Shown: in pieces, positions 2,288 through 34,169 of the stretch | Position numbering within the stretch: position 1 is the first letter of the stretch | Layout of the letters: each line of letters starts with the position of its first letter | Assembly (NCBI GenBank): GCA_003452965.1 | Contig: DMMW01000010.1 | Location: 1 to 34,525 of the forward strand | DNA length: 34,525 nt | Origin: Elusimicrobiota bacterium | GTDB lineage: Bacteria > Elusimicrobiota > UBA8919 | Direction of reading: 5' to 3' | The notes under the pieces: model-generated | The model's database searches: none | What the model was told of the DNA's origin: nothing | Seen by the model: only the letters and a program-made list of their open reading frames with translations | Made by a program: the position numbers and the translations under genes

Positions 2288-3175
2288 CTACCTCTTTACC
2301 TTTGTCGCTAATGTTTTATATAATTCTAACGCTTCTTGTGGTTTCATGTTTTTATGCACAACATTATTTACTGCTTTTATCATTGCAATAGGATTTTCGC
2401 TTTGGAATATGTTTCTGCCCATATCCACACCCGACGCACCCTGCTGTACGGCACTATATGCCATTGTAAGTGCATCCAACACTGGCAGTTTTTTACCGCC
2501 TGCCATAACAATGGGAACAGGACATGATGCCGTTATAGTTTCAAAATCTTCTGGAACATAATATGTTTTTACTACATGTGCACCCAATTCTGCACATATA
2601 CGGCATGCAAGCCGAAAATATTTAGCATCCCTTACCATATCCTTGCCTACTGCGGTTACTGCTAAAACAGGTATTCCATAACGCATTCCCATATCAACCA
2701 ACTTGGTCATATTATGTATTGACCGTGTCTCAAATTCACCTCCGATAAATACCTGTATTGCCATAGCTGATACATTCATTCTGATAGCATCTTCAATATC
2801 AACAGCTATTTCTTCATTTGAAAGTTCTTTTAAGATGCTTGGTCCACCGCTTGTTCTCATAACTATAGGTGTTGTAAACGACGGAGGTATAGTAGTTCTC
2901 AAGATTCCGCGGGTCAACATAATTGCATCTGCATATTTTACAAGCGGAACAATATTTAAATCAATCCGTTCCAATCCGGTTGTAGGTCCCTGAAAATAGC
3001 CATGATCTATTGCCAGCATGACCGTGCGTCCAGTATCGCTGTTGAATATTCTTGACAGGCGGTTTTTCATACCCCAATCTAAAGAATTAGACCCTTTAAG
3101 AAAAAAACATTCCGATTTCATTGGAATATCTTCATAATATTTTTTTTCTTCTTTATTTGCGTCTGTTTCCGGCAT
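2288..3175 (-). CDS. DhnA/FbaB/LsrF-family class I aldolase (TIM barrel)
   Basis: [12 protein letters not shown] and a GAHVVKTYY-type Schiff-base lysine region. The track ORF is trimmed to ATG at 3175 (MPETDANK...), which is preceded by GGAGG on the minus strand. Confidence 0.75.
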
Positions 3176-3259
3176 AACTCCTCCCTGGAAATTTATTAAT
3201 TTTAATAACCTCATTATATATAAAAAATATTTTATTTTCAATAAAAATTTAAAAACCTC

Positions 3260-3287
3260 TTGCAAATTATCAATGTTTAGATACAAT
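3260..3287 (+). promoter_or_regulatory. Putative sigma70-type promoter for the cupin/esterase genes (TTGCAA-16-TACAAT)
   Basis: TTGCAA at 3260-3265 and TACAAT at 3282-3287, about 27 nt upstream of the cupin ATG, within an AT-rich divergent intergenic region. Confidence 0.4.
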
Positions 3288-3313
3288 AATAGAAAATAAT
3301 ATTGGGAGATTTT

Positions 3314-3628
3314 ATGCCTATAATCTCGGGAAAGAATGCTGTGCAAAATACCGGTGAGTTCCCGGCATGGGGATTGGTTCACTTCAAAGCAGGACAGAAA
3401 AACATAACAGAATTACATTATCACGATAGTGACGAATTTTTCTTTATGATTGAAGGAAGATGTGTGATGAAATCGGAAGGGAAAATATATACTCTTGAAA
3501 AAGGCGATGTTTTTGTTACTCGCATGGGTGACGAACACGAACTTTTTGAGATATTGGAAGATACGACACTTTTTTGGCTATGCACAGAACTTCGCGGTCA
3601 AAAAAGGCAAGGACACCAGCACAGGTAA
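3314..3628 (+). CDS. Cupin-domain protein
   Basis: Cupin motif 1 is [14 protein letters not shown] and motif 2 region is [15 protein letters not shown]. The ATG at 3314 is preceded by GGGAG. Confidence 0.7.
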
Positions 3629-6390: not shown

Positions 6391-6630
6391 ATGAAGATTT
6401 TGTATCGTGATGTTAAAAAATATTGTGTGTTGACGAATAGAGAAGTGGAAGTCTTGCAGAAACTTATTCATAATACATTACCCAACGGGAATGAAGAAAT
6501 AATTCCTGTTCAGAAAATAAAATGTCCATATGCTATCAAGTGTTTCTATGAAGCGAGAGATTGCATTTACACTGAAAGCAATATCAATTCTAAAAATGAT
6601 CCCTTAATATTCAAAAATGAAGAGAAGTAA
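6391..6630 (+). CDS. Small hypothetical protein (79 aa, 4 Cys)
   Basis: Only ORF-level evidence. It overlaps the next gene by 14 nt. The short LTNREVEVLQKL stretch is reminiscent of LuxR-type HTH but too short to call. Confidence 0.3.
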   Translation: MKILYRDVKKYCVLTNREVEVLQKLIHNTLPNGNEEIIPVQKIKCPYAIKCFYEARDCIYTESNINSKNDPLIFKNEEK

Positions 6631-7714
6631 ATTGGAACTTAAATATAAACCGGATTTTGATTATGCAAAAGAAATGTGGAATCATTATTGGGCAAAAGAA
6701 GTATTGAAACGTCCGCTTGTGGTTGCCAATGTAGTTAAACAAGAAGGAAAAACTGTTGATAAAGATAAGTATAAGTATTATAATGCATGTACGAAGAATT
6801 ATAGAGAACAACTGACGATAATTGATGAATGGTTGGATAATACGTTATTTCTTGCTGAATCAATTCCGTGTTTTTCTCCAAGTCACGGTCCTGACCAGTT
6901 TGCTGCAATGCTCGGTGCTGATTTAAAATTTTCAGAAAGTAGCAAAACTACGAATTGGGTAGAACCTATAGTAGAAAATTGGGAAGAATTTATCCCGAAG
7001 ATTAAATTAAATGAAAATAATTCCGTCTGGCAAAGTCTTCTGGAATATTCAAAGATTCTTAAAGAACATTCAAAGGGGAAATATCTCGTTGGGATTTGCG
7101 ATTTTTATTCAAATGCCGATATGTTAAGTGCGATTCGGTCTCCGGCTAAATTGTGTATGGATTTTTATGATTATCCCGAATCAATAGCAAAGGCAATGTT
7201 ATCAGTCAGAAAATTATATAAAACGGTATATAATTCTTTATATGAAGCAGGCGGAATGAACAACGAAACCGGTACTATAGGGTGGATTCCTTTTTGGTGT
7301 AAAGATAAATATGCAACGATTCAATGTGATTTTATATGTATGGTATCACCGAAAATTGCAAATGAATATATAATTCCGGCATTAGAGGAAGAGGCGAATT
7401 TTCTTGACCATTGCATCTATCATCTTGACGGTCCCGGAGCATTACCACATCTTGATAATATTCTTGCAATAAAAAAAATTGATGCAATTCAGTGGATACC
7501 CGGTGATGGGCAGCCGCCGCAGTATGAATGGATTGATGTTCTGAAAAAATGCCAGAAAGCTGGTAAGGGACTTCAGATTTTGGATGTCACAAGCATAGAT
7601 ATTATAAAAAAATTCAGCAAAGAACTCAGTCCGGAAGGACTGGTATACTGCATAGACGTAAAGACTGAAAGAGAAGTTGATGAAATAACGACATGGCTTG
7701 AAAAAAACACTTGA
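6617..7714 (+). CDS. Hypothetical protein, possibly a uroporphyrinogen-decarboxylase (URO-D)-like TIM-barrel family member
   Basis: 365-aa ORF. The overall pattern (SHGPDQFAAMLGA..., CIYHLDGPGALPHLDNILAIKKIDAIQWIPG) recalls URO-D/MtaA-like proteins. The family call is from memory only. Confidence 0.4.
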   Translation: MKRSKLELKYKPDFDYAKEMWNHYWAKEVLKRPLVVANVVKQEGKTVDKDKYKYYNACTKNYREQLTIIDEWLDNTLFLAESIPCFSPSHGPDQFAAMLGADLKFSESSKTTNWVEPIVENWEEFIPKIKLNENNSVWQSLLEYSKILKEHSKGKYLVGICDFYSNADMLSAIRSPAKLCMDFYDYPESIAKAMLSVRKLYKTVYNSLYEAGGMNNETGTIGWIPFWCKDKYATIQCDFICMVSPKIANEYIIPALEEEANFLDHCIYHLDGPGALPHLDNILAIKKIDAIQWIPGDGQPPQYEWIDVLKKCQKAGKGLQILDVTSIDIIKKFSKELSPEGLVYCIDVKTEREVDEITTWLEKNT

Positions 7715-7926
7715 AGCTCCATCCCGATAACAATCGGGATTATAACATTTACCATAAGATTTTAAGGAGCGGAATCCGGCCCGTCAAGGCTTCGGCCTTG
7801 GCTGGCTGCAGGATGAAGCTCCATCCCGATAACAATCGGGATTATAACATTTACCATAAGATTTTAAGGAGCGGAATCCGGCCCGTCAAGGCTTCGGCCT
7901 TGGCTGGCTGCAGGATGAAGCTCCAT
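7712..7926 (+). repeat. Perfect 102-bp tandem duplication (7712-7813, 7814-7915) plus an 11-nt third start; each unit carries two hairpins
   Basis: The two units are identical by direct reading. Hairpin A is atcccgat-aaca-atcgggat (7721-7740 and 7823-7842). Hairpin B is caaggc-ttcg-gccttg (7785-7800 and 7887-7902), a C(UUCG)G tetraloop on the + strand. The array begins at the stop codon of the upstream gene. Confidence 0.95.
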
Positions 7927-26847: not shown

Positions 26848-27238
26848 GGGGGCTGGGACTATGCTCTTGACTTTTTATTGTAGTATGTCCCCCAAGGTCC
26901 ATAGTAAACAACGAATGGTATTTTGGGGAATACAATACCTAAATAACGTCAAAAAAAATGAAAAATCAATGAAAACACAACTAATTGCTGAAGCAAACGT
27001 ATGGTGGAAATTTGGTAAAAACTTTTCTTACATATCAAAAGAATTACAAAGGAATTGACCCTACCCCATTAAATTTTACTAATACTAAATCCTATCTAAA
27101 AATTACTTGACAATTTATGAATATTATTATAAGACATATATGTAATATAAATGATAGTATACACGGTAAATGCGAGCAAATAATAGCATACTCATAAGTA
27201 TCCTACTCGTGAGTATTCTAACTAAAAGGGTGCGGTTT

Positions 27239-27574
27239 ATGGAGCATAAATTCATAAATAGAAAATCTGAAATTGATTCATTAGAAAAAAAGTGGGAAGA
27301 GAAAAAAAGCCACTTGATTATTGTTTACGGCAAAAGGCGTGTAGGTAAAACGGAAATCATAAAACAGTTTATTAAAAATAAACCCTCTGTATATTTCTTG
27401 GCTGACAAACGGACTATAAACGAACAACTCAAAGAATTAGGCAGGTTATTCGGCGCTCATTTCAAAGATGCCCTACTTGAAAAGAACGGATTTACCGACG
27501 ATATGCTGAAACTGGCGAAACAAGAACGTGTTTACTTAGTCAACAAGAACGAATTGATTGAGATGCAAGAGTAA
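27239..27574 (+). pseudogene. Internally deleted ATPase of the Arch_ATPase + DUF234 type (N-terminal ~95 aa joined to the last ~30 aa)
   Basis: FINRKSEIDSLEKKW..HLIIVYGKRRVGKTEIIKQFIKNKPSVYFLA (Walker A) runs directly into GFTDDMLKLAKQERVYLVNKNEL, the typical extreme C-terminus of such ~450-aa proteins. Confidence 0.6.
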
Positions 27575-27891: not shown

Positions 27892-27923
27892 TAAAAGATG
27901 AAAAACCAAAAAGACCCCGTTCC

Positions 27924-27951
27924 TTGATTTTTCACTGTAAAAGAGTATAAT
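27924..27951 (+). promoter_or_regulatory. Putative promoter TTGATT-16-TATAAT ending 9 nt before the ATG (near-leaderless transcript)
   Basis: TTGATT at 27924-27929 and TATAAT at 27946-27951, with the ATG at 27961 and no SD between them. Confidence 0.4.
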
Positions 27952-27960
27952 CAAATCATT

Positions 27961-29436
27961 ATGAAAAAGTATAAAATATTCGTGAGTGGTGTGCAGAAAG
28001 AACTCAAAGCAGAACGCCGGGCAGTGAAAGATTCGATTCTCGGTGATGTCTTGCTCTCCGAGTATTTTGACGTTTTCTTGTTTGAAGATTCACCGGCTAA
28101 AAGCCATTCAGCAGAAAAGGCATATCTTGAAGAAGTCCGTAAAGGCAATATCTATATCAGCATTCTTGGCGATAAATACGGCAGCACGGGCAAGAATAAA
28201 ATTTCTCCTACCGAAGCAGAATTTCGGGAAGCAAAAACCAAGCATAAAGACATTTTAATTTATATAAAAGGTGAAAACTCCGTTGATAAAAACCGTGAAG
28301 CAGGCGTACAGAAACTTATTAAGGAGATTAAAGATTCCAAGGTGGGTTATTGTTATCGCAGATTTAATTCCATCAGCGAATTAACCAACCTTGTTTATGA
28401 AAGTTTGATTGTCTTTTTAAAAGAGAAAGGAGAAGTCGGCAGAGCCGTATTTGACCAGCGGATATGCGACAGTGCGACTTTCTCCGATATTGACGATGAA
28501 AAAGTTAAGTGGTTTTTAAAAACAGCACGAGCCAAACGGAATTTTCCACTTGCTCTTGATTCTTCAACACAAGATGTTTTTACTCATCTAAAACTTTTGA
28601 AAGACGGCAAATTGACCAACGCCGCAGTTTTATTATTCGGCAAAGAACCGAGAAAGTTTTTTGACCAGGCAAAAATCAAATGTATTCATCTGCCAAGTAC
28701 CGAAGTAGAGAAACCGTTCACATCATATCAAATTTACGAAGGGAATTTATTTGAGCAGGTGGACAAGGCAGTTAGTTTTGTATTTGATATACTCAAATTC
28801 CCTGTTATTCAGCAGGAACATACTGTCCAGGTATCTCGGCCCCGTGAAATTCCAGTATTCGTGGTTCAGGAAGCCATCGTCAACGCAGTTGCTCACCGCG
28901 ACTATAACACGACGTCCTCTGTTCAGGTAATGGTATTTCTTGACCGAGTGGAAATATGGAATTCTGGGACTTTACCAGCCCACTTAAAAATAGAAGACCT
29001 CAAAAAACCACACGCATCTCACCCGACAAATACTTTATTAGCCACAGTAATGTTTTTTGCCGATTACATTCAACAAGCAGGTTCGGGAACATTGGAGATG
29101 CTCAAACAGTGTAAGGCAAAGGGACTTCCCGAGCCGGACTTCGTATCAGTGCGGAATCTTGAATTCAAAACAATATTAGCCAGAGATATTTTTACGGAAG
29201 AGGTCTTAAATAAACTGGGATTGAATGAACGCCAGTTAAAAGCAGTAAAATATGTAAAAGAAAAAGGCAGAATAACGAATAAAGAATATCAGTTAAATTT
29301 TGGTGTTAAGAAAAGACAAGCAACAGATGATTTAAAAGATTTAGAAAATAAAGAGGTCTTAATTAAGATTGGATCTACTGGAAGGGGAACATATTACAAG
29401 GTTAATGGGGCGATAATGGGGCGAAAGGGGCAATAA
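27961..29436 (+). CDS. Fusion protein: N-terminal DUF4062-like domain + COG2865-type body (HATPase_c_4-like) + C-terminal wHTH
   Basis: The N-terminus KIFVSGVQKELKAERRAVKDSI...GNIYISILGDKYGS matches my recollection of the DUF4062 pattern. The middle and C-terminal parts (LTNAAVLLFGKEP, VQEAIVNAVAHRDY, VEIWNSGTLP, AGSGTLEMLKQCKAKGLPEPDF) are typical of RecG-like/COG2865 putative regulators. Confidence 0.75.
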   Translation: MKKYKIFVSGVQKELKAERRAVKDSILGDVLLSEYFDVFLFEDSPAKSHSAEKAYLEEVRKGNIYISILGDKYGSTGKNKISPTEAEFREAKTKHKDILIYIKGENSVDKNREAGVQKLIKEIKDSKVGYCYRRFNSISELTNLVYESLIVFLKEKGEVGRAVFDQRICDSATFSDIDDEKVKWFLKTARAKRNFPLALDSSTQDVFTHLKLLKDGKLTNAAVLLFGKEPRKFFDQAKIKCIHLPSTEVEKPFTSYQIYEGNLFEQVDKAVSFVFDILKFPVIQQEHTVQVSRPREIPVFVVQEAIVNAVAHRDYNTTSSVQVMVFLDRVEIWNSGTLPAHLKIEDLKKPHASHPTNTLLATVMFFADYIQQAGSGTLEMLKQCKAKGLPEPDFVSVRNLEFKTILARDIFTEEVLNKLGLNERQLKAVKYVKEKGRITNKEYQLNFGVKKRQATDDLKDLENKEVLIKIGSTGRGTYYKVNGAIMGRKGQ

Positions 29437-29452
29437 AGGGGCGATAATGGGG
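29407..29452 (+). repeat. Five phased GGGG runs (~11-nt period; GGGGCGATAAT-type units) overlapping the gene's stop; canonical G-quadruplex motif
   Basis: GGGG at 29407, 29418, 29427, 29438 and 29449, with loops of 5-7 nt. The unit ggggcgataat occurs exactly twice. Confidence 0.9.
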
Positions 29453-29697
29453 CAGAGCATTTAAAAAGACAGTATGTTTTTCCGATATAAAAACAGGAAA
29501 GCGCATTGGTCTCGATAAAGGCGGCCACTGGATTATCCTTCGTAGCAATAATAAAGTGGGAAAAGTTGTAGAGAAATAAAAAGAAAAATGTAAAGCGTCC
29601 ACATTTTCCTAATACACAATATGACACACAGATAAAGAACCTAAAATTAGGATTATCATTTCAAAACATAGGTCCCAAAATGACATTTATACAAGAG

Positions 29698-29875
29698 TGA
29701 CCCCACCCCCGAAAACTGTACCAGTTGAAATTAGAGTTTAGAAATGGTAAACTAAACTCATGGGGGTATGGTTATGAAACAGGGCAGGTACAAGGAAGAG
29801 CAGATTATCGGGATATTGAAGGAAGCAGAAGCCGGCATAAAGATAGATAAATTATGCCGTAAATAAGGATTAAAT
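29698..29875 (+). mobile_element. Truncated IS3-family remnant: left end (TGACCCCACCCCC...) plus the first 30 codons of orfA
   Basis: MKQGRYKEEQIIGILKEAEAGIKIDKLCRK* (29774-29866) matches the conserved IS3 OrfA HTH N-terminus (..EEQIIGILKEAEAG....LCRK). A TGA-initiated terminal sequence lies about 75 nt upstream. No remainder of the transposase is present. Confidence 0.6.
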
Positions 29876-29881
29876 GAGATT

Positions 29882-32800
29882 ATGAGCAATCAATTTATAA
29901 CTAATCAGGAAAAACTACTGTCGGAAGTAATAAATAATATTCTCCCATCCACACAAAAGTTAAATATCTTGGTTGGATATTTTTATTTTTCCGGATTCCA
30001 GGAAATTTATAAAAATATAGCAGATAAAGAAGTTAAAATCCTCATTGGTTTAGATATTGAAAAAGATATTTTAAACAAAGTCAAAGAATTTGAACTAATT
30101 CAATCTATAAATCTTTCCCGAAGTCAAGTAAGAGATAATTTCAATAAATCGTTTATCCAATTATTTAACGATTCAGATTATTTTGATATTGAAGAAAAAC
30201 AAGAGGCATTCCGAATATTTCTTGAAAAAATTATAAACAAAACACTTGAAATTAGAAAAACCGTCCAACAAAACCATGCAAAATTATATGTTTTTGAAAA
30301 CAAGCCGGAACATAATCAGAACGGTGAATTCTTAGGAACAATAATTACCGGTTCAAGCAACTTAACCCGTTCAGGATTAAAAGGACAGCGTGAAATAAAT
30401 GTTATATTTCGTGACAATGGCAATTACGAGGAAGCACTCAAAATATTCAACGAACTTTGGAAGGATGAAAACTCGGTAGAAATAGTCGGTAAAACTACAA
30501 CGGACAGTTTTCTTATCGAAATAATAGAAAAAATCTGGATTGATAAACTTTACGATCCATATTTATTATATATTCGTGTCTTGGAAGAATATTTTTCATT
30601 TACTAAGAAAGAAGGTATCATTCTTCCTTCCGAAATTACAAAAAATAAATTCATGAATCTTAAATATCAGAATGACGCTATTTCGCAATCAATAGAAATT
30701 CTTAACCGGCACAACGGCGTTATCATTGCGGATGTTGTTGGATTGGGAAAAAGTATTATTGCTTCTGCAGTAGCCCATAACATGGGATTACGAACAATAA
30801 TTATCTCACCACCGCATCTAATAGGGCAATGGGATGATTATCATATTGATTTTGGATTTAACGCTAAAATATTCAGCAGCGGTAAAATACAGGAAGCATT
30901 AGAATATGATTTTGCATATAATGAGCCAAAATTAATTATTATAGATGAATCGCATAAATATCGCAACGAACTAAACATTGACTACGGATATTTACATCAA
31001 CTATGCCAGGGAAACAAAGTAATTTTATTAACCGCTACGCCATTTAACAACCAACCGCAGGACATATTTTCAATGATAAGATTATTTCAAATACCTGCTA
31101 GGTCCACAATACAAACAGTAGATAATTTATCATACAGATTTAAAGAACTTATCAAGGAATATAAAGAAATAAAAAAATCACAAATACAAAAAAAGTCGGA
31201 TATGAAAGATGAAATTAAAATATTGGCACAAAAAATCCGTGATATACTTGCTCCATTGGTTATTCGTCGGTCAAGATTGGACTTGGAAAAAATTAATGAA
31301 TACCGAGAAGACCTTAAAAAACAAGGGATATCATTTCCTGAAGTTAAAGATCCTACAATTTTAGACTATCCGCTTGGAAAACTTAGTATACTTTACGAAA
31401 AAACTCTTGAAAAAATTGTATCCACGGAAGACGAATCACAGGGCTTCATGGGAACAAGATATAAACCGACAAATTATCTTAAAGAAGAACACAAAAAACA
31501 AGTTGCTGATGAATTAGGTGTAAAAGAAGATTTACTTGTACAGGTACAAATAAACCTGTCAAAATTTATGCGTCGCCTATTAGTCAGGCGTTTTGAAAGC
31601 TCGGTAAAAGCATTTCACGATTCCTTGAACTCACTAATAAAATCATCCGAATACATGCGTGATTGGTATAATAAATTTGAGAGTGTTCCAATATACAAAA
31701 AAGGTGATTTGCCGGACATAGAAATCCTTGAACAATCCACCAGTGAAGATTTAGATGAAGAACTCCAGCAGATTACATTTGACGAGCAACTAAAAAAATA
31801 TTATGACAAAGGACTTAAAATAATAAAAAAAGAATGGCTAAAAGACACTTTCATTAAAGACATTGAAAAAGACATAAAACTACTAAAAGAAATACGTGCA
31901 GAATGGTTTAAAGACGGCATCAAACACGACCCGAAATTAGAATGTTTTGAAAAAGAAATAAAGCAACAACTAAAAAAAGAACCCAACAGAAAAATAGTTG
32001 TATTTACCGAATTTTCAGATACAGCAAACTATCTATACGAAAAACTCAAAAACAAATTGAAAATATTTAAATATACCTCCGCGGACTCAAGTGAAACCAA
32101 CAAAAAAATAATCAAAGAAAACTTTGATGCCGGTAATCCTATACAAAAAGACGACTACGACATTCTTATTGCTACCGATGCAATTTCAGAAGGCTTTAAC
32201 CTTCACAAAGCAGGTATTATATTCAACTATGACATCCCATACAACCCGACAAGAGTAATACAACGGGTAGGACGTATAAACCGCATAAACAAAAAAGTAT
32301 TTAATGAACTTTACATCTATAATTTCTTTCCAACGGCTACCGGTGAAGCAGAAACACGGATAAAAAAGATATCTACATTAAAAATTTCATTATTTAATGC
32401 TTTACTTGGTACCGACATAAAAGTATTAACCTCGGATGAAGAATTGGAATCCTATTACAAAAATGAATTTATAAAATCAATGGCAAATCAAGAAGAACTA
32501 TCATGGGATGTAAAATATCGCAATGAACTTGGAATATTGAAAAATAAACATCCAGATATATTACAAAAGGCAATGGCAGTTCCCCATCGTGCCCGCATTA
32601 GAAGAACAGAAAAGAAAGATACAGCTGGAGTCATTGTATTTGCGCGAAAAGGGAAAGAATACACGTTCAAACTTGGCATTTCAAAGGAAGATTATACAAC
32701 ATTAGGTCCTGAAACTGCACTAAAACTATTTGAATCAGAAATAACCGAAAAATCGGAAAAAATAAGTAAAAACTTTGAACCGATATACCAGCATGTAAAA

Positions 32801-33121
32801 AACAACCTATTCAACAAAAAAACCCAGGTATCTTTTGATAAAGGAAAAACCGAATCAATAAACAAATTAGAAGTATTACAAGAAAAGATTCCAGATAAAA
32901 AGGACTATTTCAACGATTTAAAATATATAATAAAAGAACTGGATGCATTACCTGAAAGATATGCTAAACAAATCCGTCAAATATCAGAAAAATCCCTTAA
33001 AAAAGATGTTGAAGAACTGCAAAAAGATGTATCGCAGAAATACTTAATAGAAATCATAGAAAAAGCACGAAGAATAGAAGATGAAGCAGAAAGCTTAATA
33101 CTCACAGAAGAACTGATATAA
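29882..33121 (+). CDS. PLD-family (single HKD) nuclease domain fused to an SNF2/SF2 helicase
   Basis: LNILVGYFYFSG and HAKLYVFEN...GSSNLTRSGL (HxK...GSxN). Helicase motifs are DVVGLGKS (I), IIIDESHKYRN (II), LLTATPFNN (III), TDAISEGFNL and QRVGRINR (VI). The ~250-aa C-terminal tail is uncharacterised. Confidence 0.85.
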   Translation: MSNQFITNQEKLLSEVINNILPSTQKLNILVGYFYFSGFQEIYKNIADKEVKILIGLDIEKDILNKVKEFELIQSINLSRSQVRDNFNKSFIQLFNDSDYFDIEEKQEAFRIFLEKIINKTLEIRKTVQQNHAKLYVFENKPEHNQNGEFLGTIITGSSNLTRSGLKGQREINVIFRDNGNYEEALKIFNELWKDENSVEIVGKTTTDSFLIEIIEKIWIDKLYDPYLLYIRVLEEYFSFTKKEGIILPSEITKNKFMNLKYQNDAISQSIEILNRHNGVIIADVVGLGKSIIASAVAHNMGLRTIIISPPHLIGQWDDYHIDFGFNAKIFSSGKIQEALEYDFAYNEPKLIIIDESHKYRNELNIDYGYLHQLCQGNKVILLTATPFNNQPQDIFSMIRLFQIPARSTIQTVDNLSYRFKELIKEYKEIKKSQIQKKSDMKDEIKILAQKIRDILAPLVIRRSRLDLEKINEYREDLKKQGISFPEVKDPTILDYPLGKLSILYEKTLEKIVSTEDESQGFMGTRYKPTNYLKEEHKKQVADELGVKEDLLVQVQINLSKFMRRLLVRRFESSVKAFHDSLNSLIKSSEYMRDWYNKFESVPIYKKGDLPDIEILEQSTSEDLDEELQQITFDEQLKKYYDKGLKIIKKEWLKDTFIKDIEKDIKLLKEIRAEWFKDGIKHDPKLECFEKEIKQQLKKEPNRKIVVFTEFSDTANYLYEKLKNKLKIFKYTSADSSETNKKIIKENFDAGNPIQKDDYDILIATDAISEGFNLHKAGIIFNYDIPYNPTRVIQRVGRINRINKKVFNELYIYNFFPTATGEAETRIKKISTLKISLFNALLGTDIKVLTSDEELESYYKNEFIKSMANQEELSWDVKYRNELGILKNKHPDILQKAMAVPHRARIRRTEKKDTAGVIVFARKGKEYTFKLGISKEDYTTLGPETALKLFESEITEKSEKISKNFEPIYQHVKNNLFNKKTQVSFDKGKTESINKLEVLQEKIPDKKDYFNDLKYIIKELDALPERYAKQIRQISEKSLKKDVEELQKDVSQKYLIEIIEKARRIEDEAESLILTEELI

Positions 33122-33134
33122 TGAAGTATAATTT

Positions 33135-34169
33135 ATGAGTGAAAATCGTATCGTTTTAGACAAAACTTATTTGAATTTCTTAAACGAAATCAAACACAAA
33201 ATTGCTTCTGCAAGAATACAAGCAAGTCGGCATTTAAATAAGGAATTGATAGAACTTTACTGGGATATCGGAAAAACAATTATTGAGAAACAAAAGCAAT
33301 ATGGATGGGGACAAAGTATCGTTGAAAAATTAGCCAATGATTTGCAAAATGGATTTCCTAATTTGCGGGGATACTCAAGTCGTAATCTATGGGATATGAG
33401 AAGATTTTATGATACATATAAAGATTCATCAATTCTGCGACAGCTTGTCGCAGAAATACCATGGGGACACAACCTAATGATTATAAACAAAATATCCAAC
33501 ATGAAAGAACGAGAATATTATATTAAATCATCGCGTGATATGGGTTGGTCCAGGAACGTACTTCTGAATCAAATTAAAGCCGGAGCATATCAATTAAGTT
33601 TAAGAAAAAAACAACACAACTTTGAAAAAGCTTTACCTGTACATCTTTCAGAACAAGCGGATGAATCACTTAAAAGTGTTTATAGCCTGGATTTTCTCGG
33701 AATAACAAGACCAGTATTAGAAAGAGAGCTTGAAAAACGGCTTATTGAAAAAATTAAACATTTTCTGCTTGAACTTGGTTCGGGGTTTTCATTCATCGGC
33801 AATCAGTATCGGCTTGAATTAGACGGCACTGAATATTTTGTTGATTTGTTATTTTTTAACCGTAAAATTAAATGTCTCGTTGCCGTTGAACTTAAAACAG
33901 GTAAATTTCAGCCCGAATATGCCGGAAAAATGGATTTTTATCTACATCTACTAAACGAACAGACCCGCCTGAAAGATGAAAACCCGCCGATAGGAATTAT
34001 TCTTTGTGCCGATAAAAGTAATATAACCGTTGAATACGCTTTAAGAAGCGTTAAAAATCCTATGGGTGTATCACAATACAATTTAACAACAAAACTTCCC
34101 GCTGAACTTAAAAAAGTTTTACCGTCGGAAAAGGAAATGAAGAATCAACTTTTAGAAGAAATTAAGTGA
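33135..34169 (+). CDS. YhcG-family PD-(D/E)XK nuclease (DUF1016)
   Basis: The N-terminal domain LIELYWDIGKTIIEKQKQYGWGQSIVEKLANDL...RGYSSRNLWDMRRFY is classic DUF1016. The C-terminal nuclease core is YFVDLLFFNRKIKCLVAVELKTGKF. The start lies 13 nt after the helicase stop. Confidence 0.85.
   Translation: MSENRIVLDKTYLNFLNEIKHKIASARIQASRHLNKELIELYWDIGKTIIEKQKQYGWGQSIVEKLANDLQNGFPNLRGYSSRNLWDMRRFYDTYKDSSILRQLVAEIPWGHNLMIINKISNMKEREYYIKSSRDMGWSRNVLLNQIKAGAYQLSLRKKQHNFEKALPVHLSEQADESLKSVYSLDFLGITRPVLERELEKRLIEKIKHFLLELGSGFSFIGNQYRLELDGTEYFVDLLFFNRKIKCLVAVELKTGKFQPEYAGKMDFYLHLLNEQTRLKDENPPIGIILCADKSNITVEYALRSVKNPMGVSQYNLTTKLPAELKKVLPSEKEMKNQLLEEIK

Follow-up and report, generated by a model that had tools for sequence, protein, structure and literature searches.

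A phased direct-repeat array at the 3′ end of a DUF4062 gene as a probable cognate docking array for the encoded winged helix

The stretch of Elusimicrobiota DNA analysed here (contig DMMW01000010.1, 34,525 nucleotides, hereafter the window) contains a gene for a DUF4062 fusion protein that ends in five closely spaced GGGG tracts. The question was what this repeat is for. A preliminary description of the same DNA presented the repeat as G-quadruplex-forming and named a 3′-end RNA stabiliser or terminator, a recombination or attachment site marking a cassette boundary, and an iteron-like, protein-binding array as possible roles.

The repeat was resolved into five in-register units, aatggggcgat, aatggggcg, aaaggggcaat, aaaggggcgat and aatggggc, with start-to-start spacings of 11, 9, 11 and 11 nucleotides. 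Its features were located as follows.

29404–29453, + strand: five-unit direct-repeat array with the core AA(A/T)GGGGC, spaced 11-9-11-11
29404–29414, 29415–29423, 29424–29434, 29435–29445 and 29446–29453, + strand: the array units
29407–29410, 29418–29421, 29427–29430, 29438–29441 and 29449–29452, + strand: the GGGG tracts
29434–29436, + strand: TAA stop codon, which reaches from the linker of unit 3 into the start of unit 4

The observations behind the preliminary description were confirmed. The five sense-strand tracts (29407–29452), with loops of 7, 5, 7 and 7 nt between them, fit the canonical quadruplex rule and straddle the stop of the open reading frame 27961–29436, the last tract ending 16 nt past it in the 3′ UTR. 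The sequence ggggcgataat was found in two exact copies, at 29407 and 29438. Nothing comparable was present elsewhere in the window: the array was the only canonical G3+N1-7 motif on either strand, and the pattern GGGG-N1-7-GGGG-N1-7-GGGG, which occurred nowhere else in the window, gave no match in 100 dinucleotide-preserving shuffles. The G4Hunter score was 1.72 over 29407–29452 (peak 1.92), compared with a maximum of 1.52 in the rest of the window. The repeats were direct only; no inverted repeats were found at the array.

The gene that carries the array and the parts of its product were assigned from the open reading frame, Pfam matches, an AF2 model and the identity to a related locus, L001.

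27901–27960, + strand: gene-linked upstream region (by identity to L001), with a promoter-like site TTGATT-16-TATAAT at 27924–27951 that is a consensus match only
27961–29436, + strand: gene of a 491-aa protein with DUF4062 (a TIR-like, predicted NADase), a histidine-kinase-like HATPase_c_4 domain and a C-terminal winged helix
29197–29403, + strand: winged-helix (wHTH) coding region (aa 413–481, from AF2 secondary structure), comprising H1 (423–435), H2 (440–447), the recognition helix H3 (451–463, nt 29311–29349) and the wing (467–481)

The DUF4062 domain occupied aa 5–91 (PF13271, 65.3 bits against a cut-off of 24.7) and HATPase_c_4 aa 319–402; no Pfam match to SLFN_AlbA_2 was obtained in this protein, the N-terminus of which was DUF4062. 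The N-terminal domain of the AF2 model was TIR/2-deoxyribosyltransferase-like, with fold matches to TIR, 2-deoxyribosyltransferase and CMP N-glycosidase, and the best PDB fold match of the model was 3LMM, DIP2311. The winged-helix stretch was modelled at a pLDDT of about 87–91, the middle poorly (30–50 at aa 236–408) and the tail 485–491 below 50. The protein follows the order that defines the module considered here, namely HATPase_c_4, then a conserved H1 motif (LNERQLKAVKYVKEKGRITNKEYQ; class motif GLNERQ..YVKEKG.ITN.EYQ), then a variable H2-H3-wing, and its C-terminus reads NGAIMGRKGQ. The array begins at 29404, four codons after Y479 and so only a few codons from the end of the wing. A protein 100% identical in sequence was present in the Elusimicrobia bacterium RIFOXYC2_FULL_34_12 MAG. 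The flanking genes in the window encoded an HKD-SNF2 helicase, a DUF1016 nuclease and pyruvate kinase, and the context was one of chromosomal housekeeping genes.

The C-terminal half of the protein, a HisKinase-like HATPase_c_4 domain followed by a wHTH, resembles that of the pSlfn-HisKinase-HTH proteins (10.1101/2025.07.24.666596); prokaryotic Schlafen-HisKinase-HTH proteins are also found in BREX loci (PMC12839542). At its N-terminal end it has the effector of the DUF4062/NIR NADase defence proteins such as Swarozyc and Evangelion (bioRxiv 10.64898/2026.05.01.722283, 10.64898/2026.06.25.731849, 10.64898/2026.09.04.749371), and like genes of that family the window gene lies in a defence island. 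It shares with them the DUF4062 domain and, in the model, the TIR-like fold, and NADase activity is predicted for it. Unlike the fusions treated in these papers, it has DUF4062 in the place of Schlafen, an arrangement not described there. The cited pSlfn and DUF4062 NADase papers mention neither a repeat array nor a DNA target of the HTH, and no mention of the arrays was found in the literature searched on HATPase_c_4, AlbA_2, DUF4062 and bacterial Schlafen proteins combined with winged helices.

Homologous genes were found to end in similar arrays at 43 genome loci and 80 metagenome loci, with 4–6 direct repeats spaced 11-9-11-11 bp. A chain of at least four units with 9/11 spacing was detected at 29 of 38 homologous 3′ ends, versus 2 of 170 other ORF ends at the same loci. 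Among the 79 metagenome loci with enough flank, 67 had at least three units and 49 at least four; in about 15% of loci only decayed arrays were left. Four loci (L003, L004, L008 and L013) had the layout of the window array, with the stop in the corresponding unit. The same modules and arrays stood behind SLFN_AlbA_2 genes (9 of 10 tested), the SLFN_AlbA_2 domain being present in nine of ten metagenome relatives of the wHTH module, and a cultured organism was represented by Rhodothermus marinus pRMAR01 (five copies of ATTGGGCA, spaced 11-9-11-11). No arrays were found behind the genes of more distant wHTH relatives (Streptomyces Fic proteins; Hymenobacter and Legionella HATPase_c_4 proteins), and the element is therefore confined to one module lineage. 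No downstream partner gene was conserved: hsdS followed in 6 of 10 tested loci, and RhuM, GmrSD, OLD, methylase or helicase genes in the others. Apparently, the repeat in the window is one copy of a widespread and so far undescribed DNA element at the ends of Schlafen- and NADase-type defence genes.

An origin from phages or as a phage mimic was also considered and rejected. A search of 2.9 million viral contigs with four-unit patterns for three of the core classes yielded no match, and no relatives of the wHTH module were found, so that such an origin was unsupported; a looser GGGGC pattern matched only simple repeats rich in GC and iteron-like phage arrays that are unrelated.

The comparison of loci bore directly on the G-quadruplex. 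The core of the units was 7–8 bp long and depended on the locus (TGGCTCA, TGCACGA, TGCACGAT, TGGCGAT, GGGACAT, AAACCCG), and most cores had no G runs. A functional quadruplex, formed by the five tracts in DNA or mRNA, would work as a terminator, as a stabiliser or as some regulatory structure; in its favour, the window array is the only such motif there and the one with the highest G4Hunter score. However, arrays at the same position with the G-run-free cores TGGCTCA, TGCACGAT and TGGCGAT keep the same copy number and spacing, and AAACCCG cores place C runs on the sense strand. Because these cores, and GGGACAT as well, cannot form sense-strand quadruplexes, the quadruplex was unsupported as the functional principle. 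Even within the GGGGC class the conserved word was AAAGGGGC[A/G], a sequence-specific core that goes beyond mere G tracts, and no terminator-like feature followed the array. Judged by these sister loci, the quadruplex is contradicted as a family-wide principle and the motif in the window is a by-product; a functional role for it was considered extremely unlikely. Homologues thus do have arrays at the same position, but the G-tract pattern is not conserved there.

It was next asked at which level the repeat is conserved. The array could encode a functional Lys/Gly-rich, AT-hook-like C-terminal tail of the type KGAPKGRKGH, the part past the stop being a dead duplication; many homologues do end in KG-rich tails, and NGAIMGRKGQ of the window protein aligns with KGAPKGRKGH. 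This reading was contradicted by the frames and stops, since it calls for one frame inside the ORF. In the GGGGC class the 46 units inside ORFs were distributed over the codon phases as 14/12/20, and the other 38 of the 84 units lay past the stop, so the one DNA word was read in three frames or left untranslated. Among 60 arrays, 35 straddled the stop, 14 were wholly inside the ORF and 11 wholly downstream, and the stop lay anywhere between a point ahead of the array and one 119 nt into or past it. As the array stands in three frames and inside, across or past the stop, tails of the KGAPKGRKGH type were taken to be accidental translations. In other classes the tails were unrelated peptides (HKPDKPDINPT, IGS, LRK), and the C-terminal tail was disordered in the AF2 prediction. 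Nucleotide conservation exceeded that of synonymous sites: identity was 0.92 in the cores, a figure inflated because the arrays were found through GGGGC-like words, against 0.33 at four-fold synonymous sites of adjacent codons and 0.51 in linker bases. A coding repeat was accordingly held to be scarcely credible. The array was taken to be a double-stranded-DNA element, neither a quadruplex nor a coding repeat.

Unlike the core, the architecture did not vary within the family. A search that allowed spacings of 8–13 recovered almost solely 11 and 9, in the order 11-9-11-11; the mean was 10.42 bp over 217 spacings, and a 9 followed a 9 once among 157 adjacent pairs. Successive cores therefore come to lie on one side of the helix. 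This spacing also weighs against an RNA-level element, in which a protein that binds RNA, perhaps the encoded one itself, would be recruited to the repeats in the mRNA 3′ end or 3′ UTR and control stability or translation. Wherever the array lies inside the ORF it is transcribed with the gene, primary arrays keep a constant orientation relative to it, some relatives are named "RNA-binding domain-containing protein" by NCBI, and the Schlafen domain is an RNase. However, a mean of 10.4 nt matches the helical repeat of B-DNA, whereas single-stranded RNA offers no evident reason for it, the protein segments that covary with the core (below) are typical readers of double-stranded DNA, and at least one secondary array, at L064, is inverted. 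At the array in the window, RNA folding was no better than that of shuffled sequence (z = −1.0) and no Rfam family was matched, and a consensus scan of 29300–29900 on the + strand revealed no intrinsic terminator (hairpin with T-run). Neither the RNA stabiliser nor the terminator suggested in the preliminary description was upheld by these results, and an RNA-level function was regarded as quite improbable.

Further, the core sequences were compared with the segments of the winged helix encoded directly upstream. Core distance correlated with the N-terminal half of H3 and with the wing (Mantel r = 0.47 for each; in neither case did any of 2000 permutations reach the observed value), whereas r was 0.12 for the C-terminal half of H3, which is equally variable and lies between the other two on the DNA, and 0.03 for H1; these values draw on few classes, perhaps 10–12 independent lineages, and come from a Mantel test, which takes no account of phylogeny. 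In a regression, the betas were 0.40 for the N-terminal half of H3 and 0.39 for the wing, with other segments near 0. The per-residue signal fell on residues 451–453, 455, 456, 459 and 472–477. In 17 of 17 proteins RQAL was paired with TGCGCGA and R[MT]AH with TGCACGA. Part of the covariation could reflect common descent of a tightly linked cassette. Since a change of core goes along with a change in the DNA-reading helix of the upstream gene product, the array is most likely the binding site of that protein.

The linkage between reader and site was visible in the alignments. Nucleotide identity to L001 was 92–95% from about 27901 and dropped to about 50–60% at about 29280, the H1/H2 boundary; past this boundary L001 was unrelated to the window, and its array was of a different type. 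Homology to loci of the same class as the window (L003, L004, L005, L008 and L013) stopped right after the fifth unit. The following feature was delimited by the identity breakpoint and the end of homology.

29281–29453, + strand: exchangeable specificity cassette, consisting of the H2-H3-wing coding sequence and the array

By these boundaries, the recognition helix, the wing and the array are swapped together as one cassette of about 170 bp. Orphan wHTH fragments were found downstream of genes, each with its own array, and at several loci two or three arrays of other core types were stacked downstream with no coding sequence between them, one of these arrays being inverted.

One further stretch of the window was recorded next to the array.

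29499–29543, + strand: possible remnant (KRIGLDKGGHWIILR), directly 3′ of the array and in another frame, of a different winged-helix wing that was displaced

It was identical at 9 of 15 positions to an orphan wHTH fragment in L018, a weak match that serves as a lead only.

The cassette boundaries raised the possibility that the arrays are recombination sites, where wHTH cassettes are exchanged or inserted in an attC-like manner, so that they would mark module ends and would not be operators. The exact end of homology at the fifth unit, the sharp breakpoint at the H1/H2 boundary, the stacked arrays of differing types, one of them inverted, and the downstream orphan fragments with their own arrays are all in keeping with it. 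However, no recombinase or integrase was conserved beside the genes, the neighbours being HsdS, RhuM, GmrSD, OLD and helicases. A common recombinase implies a shared core, whereas the cores differ and follow the DNA-contacting residues of the adjacent wHTH. The array has neither inverted repeats nor hairpin potential, and the invariant H1 coding stretch, the upstream anchor, showed no synonymous-site conservation. We consider recombination unlikely as the function of the array, and it can be reconciled with the binding model. Of the cassette boundary proposed in the preliminary description, the homology end after unit 5 and a cassette of about 170 bp were retained, and integrase or attachment-site features were not found.

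Hence, the array is probably iteron-like and the cognate docking site of the winged helix whose gene it terminates, because its core covaries with DNA-contacting residues, its architecture is fixed and reader and site are swapped together. The iteron-like look noted in the preliminary description was thus upheld, and the protein-binding array that it suggested is most probably right. The AF2 model, with a confident wHTH and a disordered tail, was also counted in favour.

Several known systems share parts of this arrangement. Plasmid iterons are bound by winged-helix Rep initiators (pPS10 RepA, F RepE, R6K pi); they are 17–22 bp long with a period of about 22 bp, and their setting is a replication origin that also contains DnaA boxes and a stretch of AT-rich DNA for unwinding. 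Like the array, they are tandem direct repeats in helical phase with the winged-helix reader, a proposed one in the case of the array, encoded adjacent, and sequence specificity diverges between related systems. In contrast, the array units are of 9 or 11 bp and belong to a defence islet on a chromosome; the protein next to them is an NADase or Schlafen effector with a histidine-kinase-like domain, not a Rep; neither a Rep family match nor origin features (DnaA boxes, AT-rich unwinding element) were found in the window. The partition sites parC of R1, bound by ParR, and tubC of pBtoxis, bound by TubR, which is a wHTH, consist of 11-bp and 12-bp repeats, respectively. They too are short direct repeats about one helical turn apart and are coated cooperatively along one face, and tubC is read by a winged helix, as is proposed for the array. 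The array differs from them in its place at, and partly inside, the 3′ end of the gene for its proposed reader, in its five units with fixed 11-9-11-11 spacing and in the fusion of the reader to a defence effector. No ParA, ParM or TubZ gene was found in the window or conserved in related loci.

In the RepA-CIS-oriR system of IncFII R1 the target likewise lies directly 3′ of the coding sequence of its own protein, a position that favours action in cis. There, the target is a replication origin and not a repeat array, and the system relies on a Rho-dependent pause element. In the polymorphic toxins Rhs and CdiA, a C-terminal cassette is paired with a cognate immunity gene, and orphan modules follow downstream. 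They resemble the array genes in having a conserved body and a sharply bounded hypervariable C-terminal module that is swapped with its partner directly downstream, and in the displaced orphan modules that pile up behind the gene. The partner of the array gene, however, is a DNA site instead of an immunity protein, and the module swapped is a DNA-binding domain instead of a toxin. The attC sites are imperfect inverted repeats that form single-stranded hairpins recognised by IntI. They share with the array a variable sequence within a conserved architecture and a place at the 3′ end of an exchangeable unit, at a homology boundary; unlike them, the array is made of direct repeats with no hairpin potential (fold z −1.0), and the window has no integrase.

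The array consists of five head-to-tail copies of a 7–8 bp core (here AA[A/T]GGGGC), with a short linker rich in A/T behind each. In the docking model proposed here, each unit would take up a single wHTH, with its recognition helix in the GC-rich core and its wing in the adjoining A/T linker, and about five protomers would be aligned cooperatively on one face of the DNA. The reader (H2-H3-wing) and its site stay adjacent and are exchanged between genes as the cassette of about 170 bp. Arrays of this type mark the 3′ ends of a large family of defence-island genes whose products end in one particular wHTH module, placed after HATPase_c_4 and either a Schlafen/AlbA_2 RNase or a DUF4062 NADase. 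The sequences themselves show that the element is conserved as DNA, has a set architecture, covaries with DNA-contacting residues and behaves as a cassette; from these we infer physical binding of the array by the protein and an outcome of that binding.

Three candidate roles may be named: docking or parking in cis, by which an abortive-infection effector would be kept at the locus that encodes it, a roadblock to transcription ahead of downstream defence genes such as hsdS, and autoregulation. Extra core copies were not enriched near the gene promoter (0.25 per kb vs 0.18 per kb), and ordinary autoregulation was therefore unsupported. Some points speak against the docking model: it is unusual for a protein to have its binding site at the 3′ end of the gene that encodes it, the stacked arrays with other cores are not explained by a simple scheme of one reader and one site, and some loci have decayed arrays only.

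Schlafen-HisKinase-HTH proteins make up about one fifth of the 5,930 catalogued prokaryotic Schlafens (10.1101/2025.07.24.666596), and the status of DUF4062 NADases as immune effectors has only just been recognised. A reader-matched array beside the gene offers for each such protein a concrete DNA target that can be tested cheaply, and points to an organisation of these effectors on the very locus that encodes them. The low-complexity C-terminal tails of thousands of database entries would be explained as translated putative binding sites, and for gene callers the stop positions in these genes are incidental. The loci supply many predicted natural pairs of winged helix and target for the study of DNA-recognition rules, together with a cassette mode of reader-site co-evolution as seen from sequence. 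As a more tentative possibility, on the doubtful side, every member of this very large effector family might carry, at the end of its own gene, a five-site phased address label matched to its recognition helix. The nascent effector would be docked in cis as an ordered oligomer, in a parked or guarded state or as a roadblock ahead of hsdS and further defence genes, undocking during infection would be the trigger, and cassette exchange would let reader and label diversify in step. If this were true, the family would provide natural specificity pairs of wHTH and DNA by the dozen, in effect a recognition code.

Five GGGG tracts were located on the + strand at 29407-29410, 29418-29421, 29427-29430, 29438-29441 and 29449-29452, at the end of the ORF 27961-29436. 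In register they formed five units at 29404-29453 (aatggggcgat / aatggggcg / aaaggggcaat / aaaggggcgat / aatggggc) with a spacing of 11-9-11-11 bp. The TAA stop codon fell at the third unit, and the encoded protein ended in ...NGAIMGRKGQ*. In the preliminary description the tracts were said to fit the G-quadruplex (G4) rule and to have no counterpart in the window, and both points were confirmed. The array was the only site in the window with at least three GGGG tracts and loops of 1-7 nt, none arose in 100 shuffles, and it was the sole canonical G4 motif, with a G4Hunter score of 1.72 (peak 1.92) versus a maximum of 1.52 in the rest of the window. Hence, the repeat was real and non-random.

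Housekeeping genes made up the window apart from a small defence islet, which followed pyruvate kinase and included the gene:

27170-27574, truncated STAND-like ATPase (ATPase_2/PDC-S27-like fragment), 134 aa
27961-29436, + strand, three-part protein of 491 aa
29404-29453, + strand, five-unit array
29882-33121, HKD(PLD)+SNF2 helicase fusion, 1079 aa, PADLOC C3a139/DrmD-like
33135-34169, DUF1016/YhcG PDDEXK nuclease, PDC-S02

Parts of the 491-aa protein

aa 5-91, DUF4062, N-terminal
aa 319-402, HATPase_c_4
aa 413-481, C-terminal winged helix (wHTH), confident structure model: H1 423-435, H2 440-447, H3 (recognition helix) 451-463, wing 467-481

The final seven residues were predicted to be disordered. 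Fold searches gave TIR/2-deoxyribosyltransferase-like matches for the N-terminal domain and the AlbA_2/HATPase_c_4 protein DIP2311 (3LMM) for the whole protein, which was identical to one of the MAG Elusimicrobia bacterium RIFOXYC2_FULL_34_12. Recent preprints showed that DUF4062 acts in anti-phage systems as a TIR-like NADase effector. On the Legionella pneumophila Paris plasmid pLPP (L134, 39-1539) the protein had a split counterpart: a separate DUF4062 protein was directly followed by a HATPase_c_4 'ATP-binding protein' with a different C-terminus and no array.

Homologues that were 65-90% identical over the body carried odd tails (KGAPKGRKGH, RGHKGDKGDIKGT, TRHKPDKPDINPT, KSIGS) or stopped directly after the wing. 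This was explained by the 43 homologous loci examined from GTDB genomes, as short direct-repeat arrays stood at the end of nearly every gene, with cores that varied by locus.

Array cores at homologous loci (L-numbers)

GGGGCG: L003, L004, L005, L008, L013
TGGCTCA: L007, L009
TGAGCCA: L010
TGCGCGAT: L012, L018, L022
TGCACGAT: L017, L021
T[GC]GGACAT: L014, L019, L020, L023
TGGCGAT: L024, L028
GGGCTCA: L016, L033, L037
AAACCCG: L027, L031, L035
GGGGACA: L034, L039

At L003, L004, L008 and L013 both the array layout and the stop position were identical to those of the window. Of the 38 focal 3' ends, 29 had a chain of at least four units; among the 170 other ORF ends of these loci, 2 did. Each unit combined a GC-rich core of 7-8 bp with an A/T-rich linker of 2-4 nt, and the difference between 9- and 11-bp units was confined to the linker. 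When any distance from 8 to 13 bp was permitted, the units nearly always lay 11 or 9 bp apart, following the pattern 11-9-11-11 or a cyclic permutation of it. Among 60 arrays the commonest patterns were 11-9-11-11 (22), 9-11-11 (19) and 11-9-11 (9), and a 9 directly followed another 9 just once in 157 adjacent spacing pairs. The mean spacing of 10.42 bp, or 31 bp per three units, matched the helical repeat of B-DNA, therefore successive cores lay on the same side of the duplex. Among the homologous loci it was thus the architecture, not the core sequence, that was conserved.

The GGGGC class was sampled by 18 distinct arrays with 84 units, whose positions fell within ORFs in 46 cases, divided 14/12/20 among the three codon phases, and past the stop in 38. 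Over all classes, 11 arrays were wholly past the stop, 14 wholly in the ORF and 35 straddling. In the GGGGC class the word AAAGGGGC[A/G] was conserved to at least 92% and the following two bases were free. Identity there was 0.92 in cores, a value somewhat inflated by detection via GGGGC-like words, and 0.51 in linker bases, while four-fold synonymous sites in the adjacent wHTH codons were saturated (0.33). The array is thus a DNA-level element and not a peptide repeat. As units occurred in every phase or beyond the stop, and cores were better conserved than synonymous sites, the peptide tails were taken as accidental translations, and a functional tail as the purpose of the array was considered very improbable.

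A functional quadruplex was judged equally improbable: G runs were missing from most sister arrays, and in the AAACCCG class the sense strand had runs of C, so the conserved trait was not quadruplex potential. The proposed 3'-end stabiliser or terminator was not supported either, since no terminator-like site followed the window array, its RNA folding was unremarkable (z = -1.0) and Rfam gave no match. The same folding and Rfam results counted against an RNA-level platform, which was considered quite unlikely. No inverted repeats were found within the window array.

A metagenome search with the conserved H1 motif yielded more than 532 stretches encoding relatives. Among the best 79 loci with enough flank, chains of at least three units stood at the wHTH end in 67 and of at least four in 49; most of the remaining loci had decayed arrays. 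Nine of ten genes tested for domains were SLFN_AlbA_2-HATPase_c_4-wHTH and one was a DUF4062 fusion, hence the array belonged to the wHTH module of the large prokaryotic Schlafen-HisKinase-HTH class, of which the window protein is an N-terminal effector swap. Downstream genes varied (HsdS in 6 of 10 tested, RhuM, GmrSD, OLD-family ATPase, methylase) and were on the same strand in 34 of 42 cases. A cultured thermophile, Rhodothermus marinus DSM 4252, provided an example: on its plasmid pRMAR01, a ...SKRTASGEL... module was followed by five copies of ATTGGGCA at 11-9-11-11 spacing. There (L132, 2996-3048 and downstream), the array-bearing gene was truncated beside a transposase, and the ORF that opened immediately behind the array began with MTPNDLPEGYKMTELGPLPEEWRVVRF, which on visual inspection resembled the N-terminus of HsdS. 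None of 2.9 million viral contigs contained the element, and more distant wHTH relatives (Streptomyces Fic; Legionella and Hymenobacter HATPase_c_4 proteins) had no array. Unrelated iteron-like arrays were seen in phage-like contigs with no linked wHTH gene: five TGGGGC at ~11-bp spacing, intergenic and beside a divergent gene start (L045, ~13100; L049, 13902; L051, 519), and a run of five GGGGGCAAG (L050, 1108-1143).

The distance between array unit consensuses was compared with the amino-acid distance of each wHTH segment by Mantel tests (2000 permutations) in 48 non-redundant modules from the window, genome and metagenome loci.

Mantel correlation with the array unit, from few classes and by statistics that ignore phylogeny (r; permutations reaching it)

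H1: 0.03; 657/2000
H2: 0.18; 17/2000
H3 N-terminal half: 0.47; 0/2000
H3 C-terminal half: 0.12; 37/2000
wing: 0.47; 0/2000

The C-terminal half of H3 was equally variable and on the DNA sits between the two strongly correlated segments. In a joint regression the weight fell solely on two segments, at 0.40 for the N-terminal half of H3 and 0.39 for the wing. The per-residue signal peaked at window residues 451-453, 455, 456, 459 and 472-477 and was about zero at the highly variable residues 463-471. The core covaried with the DNA-contacting elements of the wHTH, where simple linkage would have given a monotonic rise toward the array.

H3 motifs and array cores

KKRQ[AST]T.DL: GGGGC
K[RK]TASRDL: GGGG[AT]CA
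SK[AP]TA[TS]R[DE]L: [GT]GGCTCA
[ED]RTATRDL: AAGACGCC
DR[TM]AL.DL: AAACCCG
KER.AT.EL: AAAG[GC]CGCA
RQAL: TGCGCGA, and R[MT]AH: TGCACGA (17/17 proteins)

The window was 92-95% identical to its closest relative, L001, from ~27901 to ~29280, with background identity beyond. The breakpoint was the H1/H2 boundary, and both the H2-H3-wing and the array of L001 differed from those of the window. At loci of the same class, homology spanned the array and stopped exactly past the fifth unit. The reader (H2-H3-wing) and its site were transferred together as a cassette. The sharp end of homology and the cassette exchange agreed with the recombination or boundary site proposed earlier, but the array had no attC features; such a function was considered unlikely, and it may coexist with protein binding. 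Synonymous sites in the invariant H1 stretch were not conserved, so H1 was no obvious DNA-level recombination anchor.

Further observations also pointed to turnover of cassettes. Some genes (L018) were followed by orphan wHTH fragments that had arrays of their own, and short wHTH-only ORFs were numerous in the protein database. Two or three arrays of differing core types, usually with fewer units, were stacked behind one gene at L010, L018 (3089-3126), L028 (4692-4730), L038/L057, L064, L068, L102/L103/L114 and L109; at L064 one was inverted, AATGTCCG being the reverse complement of CGGACATT. Stacked arrays may be remnants of replaced cassettes, or they may serve paralogous proteins as sites. 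Directly past the window array, an open frame (29448-29576) read ..KTGKRIGLDKGGHWIILRS.. (core 29499-29543), which was weakly similar (9/15 identical) to the wing KRIGPNFGGHWEVLK of the L018 orphan; 29499-29543 may be what is left of an older, displaced wHTH module at the C-terminus.

Other repeats were also observed in the window:

1365-1443, adjoining 9-nt repeat runs, GTTACTAGG x4 and AACTCTAAA x4-5, between SDR and Aldolase_II genes
2094-2243, ~21 tandem heptamers CAGGATA/CAGAATA filling the gap between Aldolase_II (1433-2089, -) and DeoC-like aldolase (2288-3382, -) genes
7712-7926, perfect 102-bp tandem duplication (2.1 copies, 100% identical) with GC-rich hairpin-like segments, between an ORF without a Pfam match (6617-7714) and malate/lactate dehydrogenase

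For intergenic DNA the heptamer tract was long; it could bind protein or be prone to slippage. The 102-bp duplication, for which Rfam gave no match, may have arisen as an artefact of assembly, or it may represent a repeated regulatory element.

Functionally, the array resembled iterons and parC/tubC centromere arrays, but neither a Rep or origin nor a partition NTPase was present here. In its cassette logic it was similar to polymorphic toxins, whose C-terminal modules come with cognate immunity genes and downstream orphans; here a DNA site takes the place of the immunity gene as partner. Open-access and bioRxiv literature on DUF4062 NADases, bacterial Schlafens and BREX-associated Schlafen-HK-wHTH genes mentioned no array and no HTH DNA target. 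The array was classed as a putative protein-binding direct-repeat type outside any described family, and an earlier description elsewhere is possible.

By comparison of the loci, the array was found to be a helically phased five-site DNA element, co-conserved and co-transferred with the adjacent wHTH contact residues. The iteron-like protein-binding array suggested in the preliminary description was favored by the helical phasing and by the covariation with the wing and the N-terminal half of H3, and binding is predicted. We proposed that the wHTH of the encoded protein probably binds one unit each. The recognition helix would enter the core and the wing the A/T linker, and about five protomers would line up side by side on one DNA face where their own gene ends. 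Classical autoregulation was unlikely, since no copies of the array core were found near promoters. By analogy, cis-docking of the nascent protein would be plausible, because the wHTH is synthesised last and the site is the next DNA downstream. The same arrangement is known from RepA-CIS-oriR of R1. A second possibility is that the array would hold an abortive-infection effector in a parked or guarded state, and a third is that it may form a roadblock before the downstream defence genes.
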